From an uncultured Actinomycetota bacterium (GTDB taxonomy: Bacteria > Actinomycetota > Actinomycetes > JAFAQI01): DNA of 64,000 nt. Positions 59,411 to 64,000 of this stretch are shown in pieces. The stretch is taken from positions 1,531,663 through 1,595,662 of the forward strand of contig CAVYQE010000001.1 in the NCBI GenBank assembly GCA_963770565.1. The letters run 5' to 3'. A model generated the notes under the pieces. The model did no database searches, was not told the origin of the DNA, and saw only the letters and a program-made list of their open reading frames with translations. The position numbers and the translations under genes were made by a program. Numbering within the stretch: the first letter of the stretch is position 1; the number at the start of each line of letters is the position of its first letter.

Positions 59411-60307
59411 ATGACCGAGTGGGACGGGCGTGGACTGCCGCCGGCGGCGCAGGCACGGGTCGATCGTGCGAGCACTGACGGCGTCCGGTCCTCGCTGCTG
59501 TCGATCCGTGGTCAGGCCGGCGTGCACAGCGTCGGCTTCGATCCGGTCGGCGAGGTCATGGGCTGCATCGTCGAGCAGATCGGCTGGGCCGGCTGGGGCG
59601 GCTGTGGGGTCTACTACGGCGGCGGGCTCGGCGGCTTCGCGATGGGCGGCCCCACGGTGACGTCGGGCGCCGGCGGTTACGCGGGTTTCGCGCCGTACGT
59701 CGATGCCCTCTACCGCGGGTTCGACACCGCGATGTACCGGATGATGCTCGAGGCGCACGCCCTCGGCGCGGACGGTGTCGTCGGGGTCAAGTGGTCGCGC
59801 GAGCGGCTGCTGGAGATGGGCGGCGCGCAGGAGTTCATGGTTCGAGGCACCGCGGTGCGAGCCCGGTCGACCGCCCGGCCCGCGCATCTGTTCTCGACCG
59901 ACCTGAGCGGTGGGGACGTTGCCAAGCTGATGCATGCCGGCTGGGCGCCGACCGAGCTGGTCTGGGGTTTCTCGGTCGCGATCCGGCACGACGACTACAT
60001 GACCCGGATGGCCGCGGTGCCGTGGTCGACGCAGAACATCGAGATCCCCGGCTACACCGAGCTGGTCAGCTATGCGCGCGCCGACTCCAGAGCCAGGTTC
60101 GAGGAGCGCGCAGCCCGGCTGGGCAGCGACGCGGCGACGATCAGCGACATGTCGCTGCACGTCCGCGAGATCGAGCCGGGCGAGGGTCACCGCGACCACA
60201 TTGCCGAGGCGATGGTCGTCGGCAACTCGCTGGTGAGGTTCCACAAGGGAAGCCGGGCACCGACCGAGAGCCACGTCGTACTTCCGCTACGAAGGAGCAC
60301 CCTGTGA
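59411..60307 (+). CDS. YbjQ-like (heavy-metal-binding domain) protein, two domains
   Basis: 'RMMLEAHALGADGVVGV', 'EFMVRGTAVR', 'FSTDLSG'. Confidence 0.75.
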   Translation: MTEWDGRGLPPAAQARVDRASTDGVRSSLLSIRGQAGVHSVGFDPVGEVMGCIVEQIGWAGWGGCGVYYGGGLGGFAMGGPTVTSGAGGYAGFAPYVDALYRGFDTAMYRMMLEAHALGADGVVGVKWSRERLLEMGGAQEFMVRGTAVRARSTARPAHLFSTDLSGGDVAKLMHAGWAPTELVWGFSVAIRHDDYMTRMAAVPWSTQNIEIPGYTELVSYARADSRARFEERAARLGSDAATISDMSLHVREIEPGEGHRDHIAEAMVVGNSLVRFHKGSRAPTESHVVLPLRRSTL

Positions 60308-61134
60308 CCGAAGACCCCAGCCAGCTCGGGCTGCCCGAGGATGCGATGCGCCGGCTGGCGGAGATGCGGCCCGGCCAGGCGACGTCGATGTTCACCTCGG
60401 ACCTGTCGGTCAACGAGTTCCTCCTGGTTCGCGAGGCGGGGTTCCGGCCGCTGGGTCTGGTGCTCGGCTCGTCGATCTACCACGTCGGCTTCCAGCGCGG
60501 CCGGTGGAGCCAGAACCAGGAGCTCGGGACGCTCACGCAGGCGATGTATCAGGCCCGCGAGCTGGCGATGTCCCGGATGGAAGCCGAAGCGGATGTGCTC
60601 GGCGCGGACGGCATCGTCGGGGTCCGGCTGGAGATCGAGTTCAAGGAGTTCGGCGAGGACCTCGCCGAGTTCATCGCGGTCGGCACCGCGGTGAAGGCCG
60701 ACGCCCCACCCCCGACCGGCGACGGCTGGCGCAACAACACCGGCAAGCCGTTCACCTCCGACCTGTCCGGCCAGGATTTCTGGACCCTGCTCGAGGCCGG
60801 CTATGCGCCGCTGGGGATGGTCATGGGCTCGTGCGTCTACCACATCGCGCACCAGGGGATGATGAAGTCGCTCGGCAACATCGGCCAGAACGTCGAGATC
60901 CCGAAGTTCACCGAAGCCCTGTACGACGCGCGAGAGCTGGCGATGTCGCGGATGCAGGCCGAGGCAGAGGCACTGACCGCGGAGGGCATCGTCGGCGTAC
61001 AGCTGCTGTCGCTGCCGCACCGCTGGGGCGGGCACACCACCGAGTTCTTCGCGATCGGCACCGCAGTGCGGCCGCTGCGCGAGGACCACGTGATCGACCG
61101 CCCGCAACTCGTCCTGCCCCTCACTGACGGCTGA
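60304..61134 (+). CDS. YbjQ-like (heavy-metal-binding domain) protein, internally duplicated
   Basis: Two copies of 'FTSDLS..F..L..AG..PLG.V.GS..YH' and 'Y.ARELAMSRM.AEA..L.A.GIVGV', 'EF.A.GTAV'. Confidence 0.82.
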   Translation: MTEDPSQLGLPEDAMRRLAEMRPGQATSMFTSDLSVNEFLLVREAGFRPLGLVLGSSIYHVGFQRGRWSQNQELGTLTQAMYQARELAMSRMEAEADVLGADGIVGVRLEIEFKEFGEDLAEFIAVGTAVKADAPPPTGDGWRNNTGKPFTSDLSGQDFWTLLEAGYAPLGMVMGSCVYHIAHQGMMKSLGNIGQNVEIPKFTEALYDARELAMSRMQAEAEALTAEGIVGVQLLSLPHRWGGHTTEFFAIGTAVRPLREDHVIDRPQLVLPLTDG

Positions 61135-61141
61135 GCGACCG

Positions 61142-61564
61142 GTGAGCGAGCCGACCCCGAACCCGGCGCCTGAGGACGTCGACGCCCTCGCCGCTGCGTT
61201 GCGCGCCGACAGTGCCGACCTCGAGGTCTACGCGCGGGTGCTGACCACGTCGCTGGCGGATGCGCTGCCGGCCGAGATGGTCGAGGTCGTGCGCGACCAG
61301 TCGATGAGGGACCGGCTGGCCGGCCGGGCAGGTGAGGTCCGGACCCTCAGGGTGAACCTGGGCGAAGTGACCCTCGAGCTCAGCCGCGGCAAGTCCGGGA
61401 CACCGGTCGCCCGCGCGGCTCGGGAGGTGCGTGGGGTGATCATTTCCAGCCGGGAGGTCAGCGTTGAGGAGTGGACCCGGATGCTCGCCGACCGGCTCGC
61501 CGTCATCGCGCGGGACTCCGCGACCGCGCGTGCTGCGCTCAGCCGGCTGCTTGGAGCCGGCTGA
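61142..61564 (+). CDS. Hypothetical protein, third gene of the YbjQ-like operon
   Basis: 140-aa ORF with GC-biased codon usage, 7 bp after the previous stop. Confidence 0.7.
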   Translation: MSEPTPNPAPEDVDALAAALRADSADLEVYARVLTTSLADALPAEMVEVVRDQSMRDRLAGRAGEVRTLRVNLGEVTLELSRGKSGTPVARAAREVRGVIISSREVSVEEWTRMLADRLAVIARDSATARAALSRLLGAG

Positions 61565-61594
61565 GCGTGATTCCGGCGCGATCCGGATAAGGTT

Positions 61595-61930
61595 TTGGCC
61601 GGACTTGCCGAGGACAACGATGTGGGCGATGTCTTGGGTCCCGAGGAGGACTCCGAACTTCGGCGGCTCCACCTGCTGAAGAGCTTCGGCATGGTGGCCG
61701 GCAATGTCACCTCGCGCTACGAAGCGCTACGCCACCGCGACCGCCGCCATGGCGTCCGTGACCCCGACGACGCGACCGTCGCCGCGCCGGTCGAGAAGGT
61801 CGACTGGCGGGCCCCGAAACCCGCGAACCGGCAGCCGAGCTCAAACCCGCAGCCCGTCGTAACGGACACCCGTGAGATCTTCGCTAGCGCTCCACAGCCG
61901 CGCCGCGGTCGCGGCATCTTTCGACGCTGA
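61595..61930 (+). CDS. Small hypothetical protein
   Basis: 'EEDSELRRLH...YEALRHRDRR..VRDP' reads as protein-like; 3' 90 bp overlap the SDR gene. Confidence 0.5.
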   Translation: MAGLAEDNDVGDVLGPEEDSELRRLHLLKSFGMVAGNVTSRYEALRHRDRRHGVRDPDDATVAAPVEKVDWRAPKPANRQPSSNPQPVVTDTREIFASAPQPRRGRGIFRR

Positions 61931-62767
61931 GGTCGAGTCGACCCGCTTCGGATAGCCGCGGTTCTCCCCGATCCCGTTCGGCCCGAAGTAGTCGCCACCC
62001 CGGACGTCCGGCGCGGTCGCGGCATAGAGCTGCGGCAGCGCCCCCTTCGCGTCGGACTGGCCGATGATCCGGATGCCGATGGTCATGACCGCCGCCTTGA
62101 GCGGGTTGCCGGCACCGGGCTTGACCAGGTTGGTGGCCGCCGTACCGGGATGGGCCGCGACGCTGATCAGCCCGGCGTCGATCGCCGCGAGCCGCCGCTG
62201 CAGCTCGAAGGCGAAGAGCAGGTTGGCGAGCTTGGAGTCCGAGTAGACCTTCCAGCGGTGGTAGCTGTGCTCGTGCATGAGGTCGTCGAAGTTGATCCCG
62301 CCCGGCCGGTGCGCGGTGCTGCTGACCGTGACGACCCGGGCGTCGGGCTGGTTGATCAGCTGAGTGAGCAAGAGCCCGGTCAGGGCGAAGTGGCCGAGGT
62401 GGTTCGTGCCGAACTGCATCTCGAAGCCGTCGGCGGTCTCGCGGCGGGGGATCGCCATGACCCCGGCGTTGTTGATCAGCAGGTCCAGCGCCGGGTAGGC
62501 CGCATGCACGGCGTCGGCGAAGGTACGGATGCTGTCCAGGCTGGCCAGGTCGAGGGCTCGCAGCTCGACGTCCGCGGCCGGCACCTCGGCGATCAGCCGG
62601 GCGATCGCCTCGCGGCCACGGACCTCGTCGCGACAGGCGAGTACGACGCGAGCGCCGTGCCGGGCCAGCTCGCGGGAGGTGACGTAGCCGAGGCCGCTGT
62701 TCGCGCCCGTGACGACCGCAACGCGTCCGGACTGATCAGGGATGTCAAGAGCCGTCCAGCGGGCCAT
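61841..62767 (-). CDS. Short-chain dehydrogenase/reductase (retinol dehydrogenase-like)
   Basis: 'VVTGANSGLG', 'LINNAGVM', 'FGTNHLGHF', 'YSDSKLAN'. Confidence 0.95.
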   Translation of the reverse strand: MARWTALDIPDQSGRVAVVTGANSGLGYVTSRELARHGARVVLACRDEVRGREAIARLIAEVPAADVELRALDLASLDSIRTFADAVHAAYPALDLLINNAGVMAIPRRETADGFEMQFGTNHLGHFALTGLLLTQLINQPDARVVTVSSTAHRPGGINFDDLMHEHSYHRWKVYSDSKLANLLFAFELQRRLAAIDAGLISVAAHPGTAATNLVKPGAGNPLKAAVMTIGIRIIGQSDAKGALPQLYAATAPDVRGGDYFGPNGIGENRGYPKRVDSTSASKDAATAARLWSASEDLTGVRYDGLRV

Positions 62768-62799
62768 TGGCACATCGTGCCATGGTGCAGATGGCGGAT

Positions 62800-62825
62800 G
62801 GAATGTTCCGCTCGTGCGCTACGTT
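62800..62825 (+). promoter_or_regulatory. SigR/SigH-type promoter GGAAT-N18-GTT
   Basis: ggaat 62800-62804, 18-nt spacer, gtt 62823-62825; points into non-coding DNA. Confidence 0.6.
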
Positions 62826-62830
62826 CATTG

Positions 62831-62968
62831 GCAGAACGTCGAGAGACGTTCGCCGGCTCGATCCATGGCCCCCGGTCCCAACCTTTGTCGCCTTGAGCGA
62901 ATCTGTGCCGAGAGGTAGACCTGGCGGGTCGGCGCGCGGAGCCCCGGACGTCCAGGTCCGGGGTTTTC
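62831..62968 (+). ncRNA. Candidate structured small RNA (~135 nt)
   Basis: Promoter upstream, GAGA-capped hairpins, a 10-bp long-range helix and a + strand intrinsic terminator, between two minus-strand genes. Confidence 0.55.
62942..62968 (+). terminator. Intrinsic terminator
   Basis: CCCCGGAC-gtccag-GTCCGGGG followed by TTTTC. Confidence 0.7.
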
Positions 62969-62992
62969 GTGTGTCCGGGGCGACGTGCGGCG

Positions 62993-63457
62993 CTATCCGC
63001 CCGCGGTGACCGGCTTGGCGAAGTAGACCCGGTCGAAGCCATCGGCGCTCGCCCGGTGGGTCTCGCGGTAGCCGTGCCTGGGGTAGTAGGCGAGGTTCTC
63101 GGTCATCGCCGCGTTCGTGTAGAGGCGCACCTCCGGCAGGCTGCCGGCGGCGGGCCTCGTCGTCGGCGAACCCGAGCAGGAGTGTGCCCACGCCTTGTCC
63201 CTGGGCCGCCGGCGAGACAGCAATGTTCTCGAGCAGGAGGTGGTCCGCTTCGGGTTCCAGGACCAGGACGCCGACGAGCTCGGGCCCGCGCAGCGCCACC
63301 CAGCCATGACCGCGCGCGACGATCGTCCCGTAGTCGGCCGTCATCGGTGCCGGTTCGCGGCCGATCCGATGGACGATACCGCGTACGCCGCCCGGACGAG
63401 AGCCGCGATCGCAGGCACATCGCTCGGCTCGGCCGGCCGGATGAGCAGGTCGATCAC
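62993..63457 (-). CDS. GNAT acetyltransferase with two frameshifts (~63377, ~63150)
   Basis: 'IRPAEPSDVPAIAALVRAAY' / 'PAPMTADY..LLENIAVSPAAQGQGVG' / 'VRLYTNAAMTENLAYYPRHGY' in three successive frame segments. Confidence 0.78.
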
Positions 63458-63475
63458 GAAGCTCAGTGTGACCGC

Positions 63476-63919
63476 CTAGCGATGCCGGGTCGCCCGGCAG
63501 GCGAATTCGACGATCCGTCGAAGCCGCGGGTCGGCCGGGTAGGCGTGCCCGGCGCGGATCACCGCGAACTCGTCCTGCGGTGCGGGCGGTGCGCCGGTAT
63601 TGGTGGTGATGAACAGCCAGCGACCGACCACCCGGATGAAGACCGTCGACGGGATATCGACGACGAGATTGCCGGCTGGCCGGCCATACGTCATCGCCGT
63701 TGCCGAGCCGTCAGTTCCCCAGCCGTGGCCCGGGTCGAGGAACTGCGCGGGCAGGATGCAGACACCTCCGTGATGCGACGGCGAGGTCCTCCCGAAAGCC
63801 TCGCTCGTCGCGGCCGGAATGGTCCCGATCGGTGCCGCGGTCGCCGCTTCGACGCCTGCGCCGGCAAGTGCCGCGGCGGCGAGGAGTGCAAGCGCCGTAC
63901 GGCGAACGATCTGTCCCAC
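63476..63919 (-). CDS. Hypothetical secreted protein
   Basis: 'RRTALALLAAAALAG..EA' signal peptide, 147 aa. Confidence 0.55.
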   Translation of the reverse strand: MGQIVRRTALALLAAAALAGAGVEAATAAPIGTIPAATSEAFGRTSPSHHGGVCILPAQFLDPGHGWGTDGSATAMTYGRPAGNLVVDIPSTVFIRVVGRWLFITTNTGAPPAPQDEFAVIRAGHAYPADPRLRRIVEFACRATRHR

Positions 63920-64000
63920 CGTTGAGTTGTCGGCTGAAGACCGGACATACCGAAGTCAAACGGGCCGAACAGATGCATTTGCGTCAACGGTCAGGCGAGG

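Follow-up and report, generated by a model that had tools for sequence, protein, structure and literature searches.

Does the 219-nt gap between two minus-strand genes of an uncultured actinomycete hold a gene of its own and, if so, how is this gene read and what could it do? The question is raised by one locus in a 64,000-nt stretch of DNA, referred to here in its whole length as the window. The gap is bounded on the 5' side by a short-chain dehydrogenase gene (61841-62773, minus strand) and on the 3' side by a GNAT gene that is broken over three frames (62993-63457, minus strand). An earlier note on this DNA had proposed that it encodes an independent RNA of about 135 nt on the plus strand, driven by a stress sigma factor. 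Direct reading of the window, together with a comparison of homologues, yielded a structured RNA gene at about 62831-62970 on the plus strand with a length of about 140 nt. Since both flanking genes lie on the minus strand, the RNA gene is divergent from the dehydrogenase gene and convergent with the GNAT gene. The predicted features of the locus are the following:

62800-62804, plus strand: -35 element GGAAT of the ECF SigH/SigR type, from sequence, conservation and the published consensus
62822-62825, plus strand: -10 element (C)GTT, with GTT at 62823-62825, 18 nt past GGAAT
62831-62970, plus strand: whole predicted transcript, with its start placed 6-8 nt past GTT and its end at the U tract
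62834-62851, plus strand: P0, a 5' hairpin of 7 bp with a GAGA loop (GAACGUC-GAGA-GACGUUC)
62852-62860, plus strand: 5' strand of P1, forming 9 bp with 62925-62933
62863-62868, plus strand: 5' strand of P2 (CCA 62863-62865, bulged U62866, GG 62867-62868), pairing with CCUGG at 62920-62924
62869-62886, plus strand: J2/3, a C-rich single strand with the consensus CCCCSGGNYCCAAC plus 3-5 variable nucleotides, made up of invariant or near-invariant columns and proposed as the effector site
62888-62900, plus strand: P3, hairpin UCGC-CUUGA-GCGA of 4-5 bp with a 5-nt loop ending in GA (NNNGA), seen by covariation
62906-62917, plus strand: P4, hairpin UGCC-GAGA-GGUA of 4 bp with a GAGA loop, seen by covariation
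62920-62933, plus strand: 3' strands of P2 (62920-62924) and P1 (62925-62933), seen by covariation
62940-62967, plus strand: terminator-like hairpin and UUUU (stem 62942-62949/62956-62963, loop GUCCAG, UUUU 62964-62967)

An independent structured-RNA gene on the plus strand

At the DNA level, 42 of 61 related genomes contain a match to the 219-nt intergenic stretch (41 of 60 once the unpublished G060 is set aside), and conservation was best over 62851-62935. Covariation among the homologues shows a predicted fold that consists of P0, P1 and P2, the last of these having a bulged U, and of a three-way junction beyond them from which P3 and P4 extend. When 100 homologues were aligned to the model R2, 93.4% of the pair cells were paired compared to 33.7-40.7% with the 3' partners slid, figures that are favoured by the fitting of the 100-row alignment to this very model. 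Compensatory change was found in 24 of the 30 pairs, and the observed values were reached by none of 500 shuffles; an earlier count that left out P2 had given 94.4% paired cells and changes on both sides in 17 of 25 pairs.

P0 is restricted to the family of the window, and all seven of its pairs change on both sides among homologues. In P1, 97.4% of the cells were paired and eight of nine pairs showed changes on both sides; its length was set to 9 bp (62852-62860/62925-62933), because C62851 cannot serve both P0 and the long helix. For P2, the alignment fitted to the model gave 90.5% paired cells with changes on both sides in all five pairs, and the bulge was nearly always a single nucleotide, usually U, while the adjoining pairs changed in a compensatory way. 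P3 carried C-G in place of U-A in 34 of the 100 rows and its other pairs changed on both sides, too. The first pair of P4 was C-G in 56, U-A in 34 and U-G in 5 of the 100 rows, all of its cells were paired, and its loop was of the GNRA type in the clade of the window. The junction strand CCCCSGGNYCCAAC was almost invariant across homologues.

Much of this fold had been read from the letters in the earlier note. The 5' GAGA hairpin at 62834-62851 and the hairpins UCGC-cuuga-GCGA and UGCC-GAGA-GGUA were all found again, at the positions listed above. The 10-bp helix that it had placed at 62851-62860/62926-62935 exists, but the coordinates needed correction, as the 3' strand is 62925-62934 and the conserved P1 counts 9 bp. 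Of the C-rich stretch described as enclosed by this helix, the C-rich strand itself stands, but the first GG belongs to P2, a helix that had been missed. The note had also named covarying homologues as a check on the structure, and the compensatory changes in the 100 homologues supply them.

Several other pairings were considered and discarded. RNAalifold paired the C-rich strand with the P4 hairpin, but the columns involved never vary while P4 covaries (U-A, C-G, U-G). A GGUC/GACC helix seen by eye was dropped for P2, which accounts for the variants. The 3' half of the terminator was likewise turned down as a partner of the C-rich strand, as terminators reading CCGAGG show no covariation with this strand. 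No reliable tertiary pairs emerged from mutual information, whose top extra pairs all tracked the split between the major clades.

The helices contained 224 G-U cells versus 31 A-C cells, and the RNA was therefore assigned to the plus strand. The fold of this strand had an energy of -68.8 kcal/mol with z = -2.66 and was equalled by 2 of 200 shuffles, compared to z = -1.01 and 32 of 200 shuffles for the minus strand. The GNRA loops, too, are on the plus strand, so that the choice of strand made in the earlier note from GNRA loops and G-U pairs holds. The same is true of its statement that the plus strand carries no credible coding sequence: a frame of 17 codons starts at 62866 with an ATG inside CCATGG, but this ATG was kept in only 55 of 100 rows and the stop codon rests on a base that changes within the family. 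A small protein gene at 62866 was thus rejected, the changes in this region following base pairs and not codons.

We also weighed the reading that the block is no plus-strand RNA at all, but serves the minus-strand dehydrogenase gene as 5' UTR or promoter, forms the 3' end of the downstream gene, which is also on the minus strand, or is the small protein gene just mentioned. The block does sit between two minus-strand genes, the hairpin at 62940-62967 could equally end the convergent gene, and there is the ATG within CCATGG. A reading on the minus strand, however, loses the 224 G-U cells and gains 31, which lowers the paired cells from 93.4% to 86.8%, and the dehydrogenase gene adjoins the RNA in just 19 of 40 aligned loci. 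Together with the poor conservation of the frame, this makes such a reading extremely improbable.

Other neighbours were found elsewhere: in Streptomyces-like genomes, the RNA is flanked by HelD-like and malic-enzyme genes, and in Actinomycetales a pstB or DUF47-type gene lies beside it. As the neighbours vary from lineage to lineage, the RNA is an independent gene, which agrees with the proposal from which we started, and the comparison shows the segment at about 62831-62970 to be an independent structured-RNA gene that is kept through the class. ARAGORN detected no tRNA and no tmRNA in the region. In the GNAT acetyltransferase gene (62993-63457, minus strand), the middle piece alone matches, at profile positions 32-91 of 116; the split gene is either a pseudogene or an assembly error. 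In the genus of the window, this GNAT gene sits between the RNA and a gene for a sigma-region-4-like protein, which is described further below.

Signals at the two ends of the predicted transcript

The consensus of SigR/SigH promoters is given as GGAAT-N18-19-GTT in the available portions of PMC9205884 and PMC10012870, according to which the GGAAC form is also read by SigE. In the window, GGAAT and GTT stand 18 nt apart, the motif is conserved in place, and it is common to canonical genes of the regulon. For 100 homologous loci, we scanned up to 90 nt upstream of P1 for GGAAY-N17-19-GTT, and the ECF motif was kept in 57 of them, with a spacer of 18 nt in 47 and of 19 nt in 10 loci. Elsewhere in the same loci, the motif had 8 matches in 573,290 nt, which is about 0.001 per stretch scanned. 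Across the whole genome, GGAAT-N18-GTT occurred 38 times against 34.8 copies expected from base composition and was thus not over-represented, so that the weight of the motif comes from its conservation at the same place in homologues and not from its rarity.

A gene lies downstream of 18 of these 38 copies. In the genome of the window, the motif precedes the gene for a SigH_actino sigma factor (TIGR02947, 351 bits), which is followed by the gene for the anti-sigma factor RsrA (TIGR03988, 101 bits), as well as the thioredoxin reductase gene trxB (TIGR01292, 400 bits); it also stands upstream of genes for a ClpC-like ATPase, a ThiS/CysO-like protein and a 1-Cys peroxiredoxin. The sigH-rsrA operon maps to G000:C2:87200-88400 and trxB to G000:C2:811404-812405, both on the minus strand, and the clpC-like gene to G000:C1:586835-589503 on the plus strand. 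As sigH-rsrA, trxB and the clpC-like gene each stand behind GGAAT-N18-GTT, they define the local SigH/SigR regulon, and the presence of the same motif at the RNA means that the RNA shares the promoter type of this regulon. Judged by sequence and conservation, transcription of the RNA is thus predicted to start at an ECF promoter that belongs to the SigH/SigR type, as had been noticed earlier from the letters at 62800-62825; this would place the RNA in the thiol-oxidative and heat-stress regulon. A consensus scan of the region gave no sigma-70 promoter.

The distance from GTT to P1 is 23-28 nt in the family of the window, enough to accommodate P0, compared to just 9-14 nt in other families, where P0 is absent. 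Control by stress is not universal, since 43 of the 100 loci were without the ECF motif and in many of them a -10 box of the form TANNNT takes its place. Such a box, in many cases together with a TTGACA-like -35 element, is found in loci of the Actinomyces, Dermabacter and Cellulomonas types, which are without P0; loci of the TANNNT type include L047, L049, L052, L077, L079, L096, L112, L118, L166 and L180. The promoter has thus been exchanged during evolution.

At the other end, sequence and conservation suggest that the RNA ends at a G+C-rich hairpin with a short U tract. The stem consists of 8 G+C-rich pairs, can be extended by 2 and covaries within the family. The earlier note had called this an 8-bp terminator stem with a U tract; stem and UUUU are present, but a consensus scan for terminators, which wanted 5 T in 8, found none in the region, because just 4 U follow the stem. 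The best hairpin downstream of the 100 homologues had a median energy of -26.1 kcal/mol compared to -18.6 kcal/mol in control stretches, and hairpins of -15 kcal/mol or lower were found in 89 of 100 homologues versus 83 of 100 controls; strong hairpins are common in this G+C-rich DNA, which makes this test a weak one. A strong downstream hairpin plus at least 3 U was seen in 56 of the 100 homologues.

Contigs from metatranscriptomes (three runs of three studies, 84-161 nt long) covered 62843-62972, 62852-62947 and 62878-62975; these contigs are strandless, lack true ends and stem partly from relatives. A DNA run, by contrast, covered the flank as well. The confinement of the contigs to the RNA hints, if weakly, at a short and abundant transcript, and the uncovered parts of the window were not counted as silent. 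The length of about 135 nt proposed earlier fits both with this confinement to 62843-62975 and with the distance from promoter to U tract, which gives about 135-140 nt.

Spread through the class and comparison with named RNAs

A search of named genomes with the core sequence pattern gave at least 120 stretches, from which 80 loci were taken. Among the matches listed, the covariance model R1 recovered 71 of the 80; the nine loci that it missed were eight chance matches in non-actinomycetes and one locus of Sphaerisporangium. The named carriers among the matches listed were Frankiaceae and related MAGs, Jatrophihabitans, Acidothermaceae, Cryptosporangium and Geodermatophilaceae, and further Actinomyces species, Dermabacter, Cellulomonas, Sanguibacter and Pseudactinotalea. 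When genomes were sampled evenly over the class, R1 matched 90 of 151 genomes and 61 of 96 genera (87 of 148 genomes without the unpublished G060, G065 and G071), so that the search for homologues suggested in the earlier note did return a conserved family. Per family, the matches ranged from 7 of 7 to 0 of 7 genomes, and most of the actinomycete families searched have the RNA. In a sample of the phylum, R2 matched 10 of 12 genomes of the class and none of 139 genomes from other classes. In the genomes G055, G110, G128 and G177 of family f20, and also in G066, the RNA occurred two or three times, on different contigs.

No Rfam 15 family matched positions 60000-64000 of the window in a cmscan at E values up to 1, nor the RNA in ten homologous loci; a chance row for Thr_leader among the homologues scored 29.5 bits compared to a gathering score of 55. 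Our search of the literature found no description of a sRNA dependent on SigH or SigR. The novelty claimed earlier thus stands with regard to Rfam families, but has to be qualified for Streptomyces, where a homologue falls into the reported intergenic region of scr2952. The genes on either side of the homologue in three Streptomyces-like genomes (family f28, 7-9 Mb) encode a UvrD/HelD-like helicase and a malic enzyme. In Streptomyces coelicolor, the excerpts at hand identify SCO2952 as HelD (PMC8655204) and SCO2951 as malic enzyme (PMC7244524, PMC4895711), and scr2952, whose expression was confirmed by Vockenhuber et al. 2011 (RNA Biol 8:468) according to PMC8388888, was reported from this intergenic region, the comparison being one of gene neighbourhood only. 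In the accessible part of PMC8388888, scr2952 is described as conserved in more than half of the Streptomyces tested, with no function given there, and class-wide spread, structure or a SigR-type promoter are not mentioned. The same text says that scr2952 is in Rfam, whereas Rfam 15 gave no match on the Streptomyces-like loci L162 and L163. For the gap between SCO2952 and SCO2951, the sole start site seen in the consulted part of the data of Jeong et al. 2016 lies 122 nt before SCO2951, with none for the RNA, which is no evidence of its absence under stress; SCO2950-2953 are not mentioned in the accessible RIViT-seq supplement, which is without target tables. By the shared gene neighbourhood, the Streptomyces member of the family was probably seen previously as scr2952.

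The independent gene with its own promoter, class-wide, small and structured, is reminiscent of 6C RNA. The latter is likewise class-wide, small and structured and consists of two hairpins with C runs in the loops, which are thought to pair with G-rich sites in mRNAs. Here, the C run is in the strand of the three-way junction (62869-62886), and the loops are CUUGA (NNNGA) and GAGA (GNRA-like). In addition, 6C of Corynebacterium glutamicum has a SigA- and SigB-dependent promoter, as stated in the part of PMC5014011 at hand, compared to the ECF type found at the RNA described here. Identity with 6C RNA was rejected on the grounds that the hairpin loops hold no C runs and that cmscan gave no match at positions 60000-64000 of the window or in the ten homologous loci at E values up to 1.

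The sigma-E-dependent sRNAs of enterobacteria (MicA, RybB, MicL) form the repressing arm of a sigma regulon and depend on Hfq. The likeness that we propose to them is that an alternative sigma factor capable of activation only makes a sRNA for repression (for stress-sigma sRNAs, see the portion available of PMC13753753). The differences lie in unrelated sequences and folds and in the need for Hfq, and the dependence on a sigma factor is derived here from the promoter sequence. RoxS/RsaE of Firmicutes are redox-linked sRNAs with C-rich unpaired motifs directed against Shine-Dalgarno regions, and thus share the C-rich unpaired motif and the predicted redox link with the RNA, but belong to another phylum, have other regulators and differ in fold, with their C-rich motifs in hairpin loops and linkers. 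Taken by kind, the RNA would belong with the stress-sigma sRNAs, and its family is real, widespread and not annotated.

The junction strand, a linked protein and the possible roles of the RNA

For the mode of action, we put at an even chance that the RNA is a trans-acting stress sRNA with the C-rich junction strand as its working surface, most likely directed against G-rich ribosome-binding sites, a last step that is inferred here as it was in the earlier note. The scaffold of the three-way junction would hold out the near-invariant strand CCCCSGGNYCCAAC, which would pair in trans with G-rich ribosome-binding regions of mRNAs; such pairing would lower the translation of the target mRNAs during stress and make the RNA the repressing arm of the SigH/SigR sigma regulon. 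C-rich unpaired strands are typical of the pairing sRNAs of Gram-positive bacteria. Actinomycetes are not known to possess Hfq, and Hfq was therefore left out of the mechanism. A search for complements of J2/3 in the genome of the window alone gave no convincing target: the sole perfect complement of the C-rich strand was the antisense of the gene itself, and complements with 2-3 mismatches in this one genome were not clearly located at start codons. A duplicated leader near 94287 and 94642 of G000:C1 (plus strand) ends with GGGACCGAGGG, AAA and ATG, is complementary to the C-rich strand of the RNA with one bulge, and is followed by a frame of about 7 codons past the ATG; this GGGACCGAGGG leader may be a target or a chance match.

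The same conserved residues would also fit an RNA that binds a protein or a small molecule, be it for sequestration, as an RNP or as a sensor, with the junction, the bulged U and the fixed loops forming a pocket or surface. We regard this main alternative as possible, if rather unlikely. The junction residues are near-fixed across the class while the helices covary, the single-nucleotide bulge of P2 is kept although the adjoining pairs change, and the combination of an invariant junction, a conserved bulge and fixed loop residues is commoner in binders of proteins or ligands than in sRNAs that pair by a seed. These points are set against the C-rich unpaired strand, which is of the kind familiar from pairing sRNAs as said above, and against the lack of a match to any riboswitch or protein-binding family of Rfam.

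A candidate partner for a binding RNA is encoded close to it in one clade. This orphan protein of about 115 aa belongs to no Pfam family (G000:C7:9-338, minus strand; a relative at L021:1639-1980, minus strand) and has 369 relatives in the databases, where those with a name go by hypothetical or 'sigma24 family'. Structure prediction (pLDDT 74.9) gave a fold similar to region 4 of ECF sigma factors, the domain that binds the -35 element; the best fold matches were region 4 of SigL, SigH and SigD of Mycobacterium and of S. coelicolor SigR, all weak with E values of at least 0.003. In 25 of the 28 published genomes that bear the protein, its gene and the RNA are no more than 2 kb apart, with convergent order in 18 genomes and tandem order in 7. 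In the genome of the window, the orphan gene is at the start of contig C7 and the RNA 1 kb from the end of C1; among the remaining published genomes, one has RNA and protein on different contigs and one is without a match for the RNA. The linkage survives inversion, which suggests that the protein is functionally tied to the RNA in its clade. Most carriers of the RNA lack the protein, however, which was present in 30 of the 151 genomes of the class (two of them unpublished) compared to 90 for the RNA, and this weighs against binding as the general role. In the genus of the loci L021-L028, the convergent sigma-region-4-like gene has its stop codon about 20 nt past the end of P1 and within the terminator hairpin of the RNA, so that the two transcripts would overlap at their 3' ends.

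The tandem arrangement raises yet another reading, in which the RNA would be a cis-acting leader or attenuator, read-through of the terminator would control the sigma-region-4-like gene downstream, with the free RNA arising as a by-product. The order of RNA and then gene on one strand was found in 16 loci, some of which are two copies of one genome, and in the 7 published genomes with tandem order; most of 12 tandem loci have a terminator hairpin in between and about 35-100 nt to the start codon, and L037 is without a hairpin between RNA and gene. The downstream gene is convergent, however, in the window as well as in 18 of the 25 genomes with linkage; Streptomyces-like, Actinomyces-like and other carriers have downstream genes that are unrelated or lie on the opposite strand, and most homologues have a terminator hairpin of their own. 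We thus consider control in cis clearly improbable. Classification as a riboswitch or 5' leader was likewise rejected, as a leader position on the same strand was found in a minority of the carriers only.

A broader version of the binding role is that the RNA is a structured effector of the SigH/SigR thiol-stress circuit throughout the class, with an invariant three-way junction that binds a protein or metabolite, and that in Frankia-like clades the RNA acts with the orphan sigma-region-4 protein. We hold this to be doubtful. If true, it would add an RNA-based layer of feedback to the ECF sigma system; a pair of RNA and protein might, for example, titrate the anti-sigma factor RsrA/RshA or compete for -35 elements.

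Actinomycetes, a group that includes producers of antibiotics, plant symbionts and oral commensals, have SigH/SigR as their master regulator of thiol-oxidative and heat stress. In other phyla, the regulons of stress sigma factors use sRNAs for repression. The RNA is a concrete candidate for such a sRNA arm of the SigH/SigR regulon, of which the literature search had turned up none, and with its defined fold, its promoter and one obvious candidate for the functional strand, it is directly testable in model strains. The family would fill a gap in Rfam and improve the annotation of genomes. A widespread candidate regulator has thus gone largely unnoticed so far, and its link to an orphan sigma-region-4 protein raises the possibility of a new layer in the control of ECF sigma factors.
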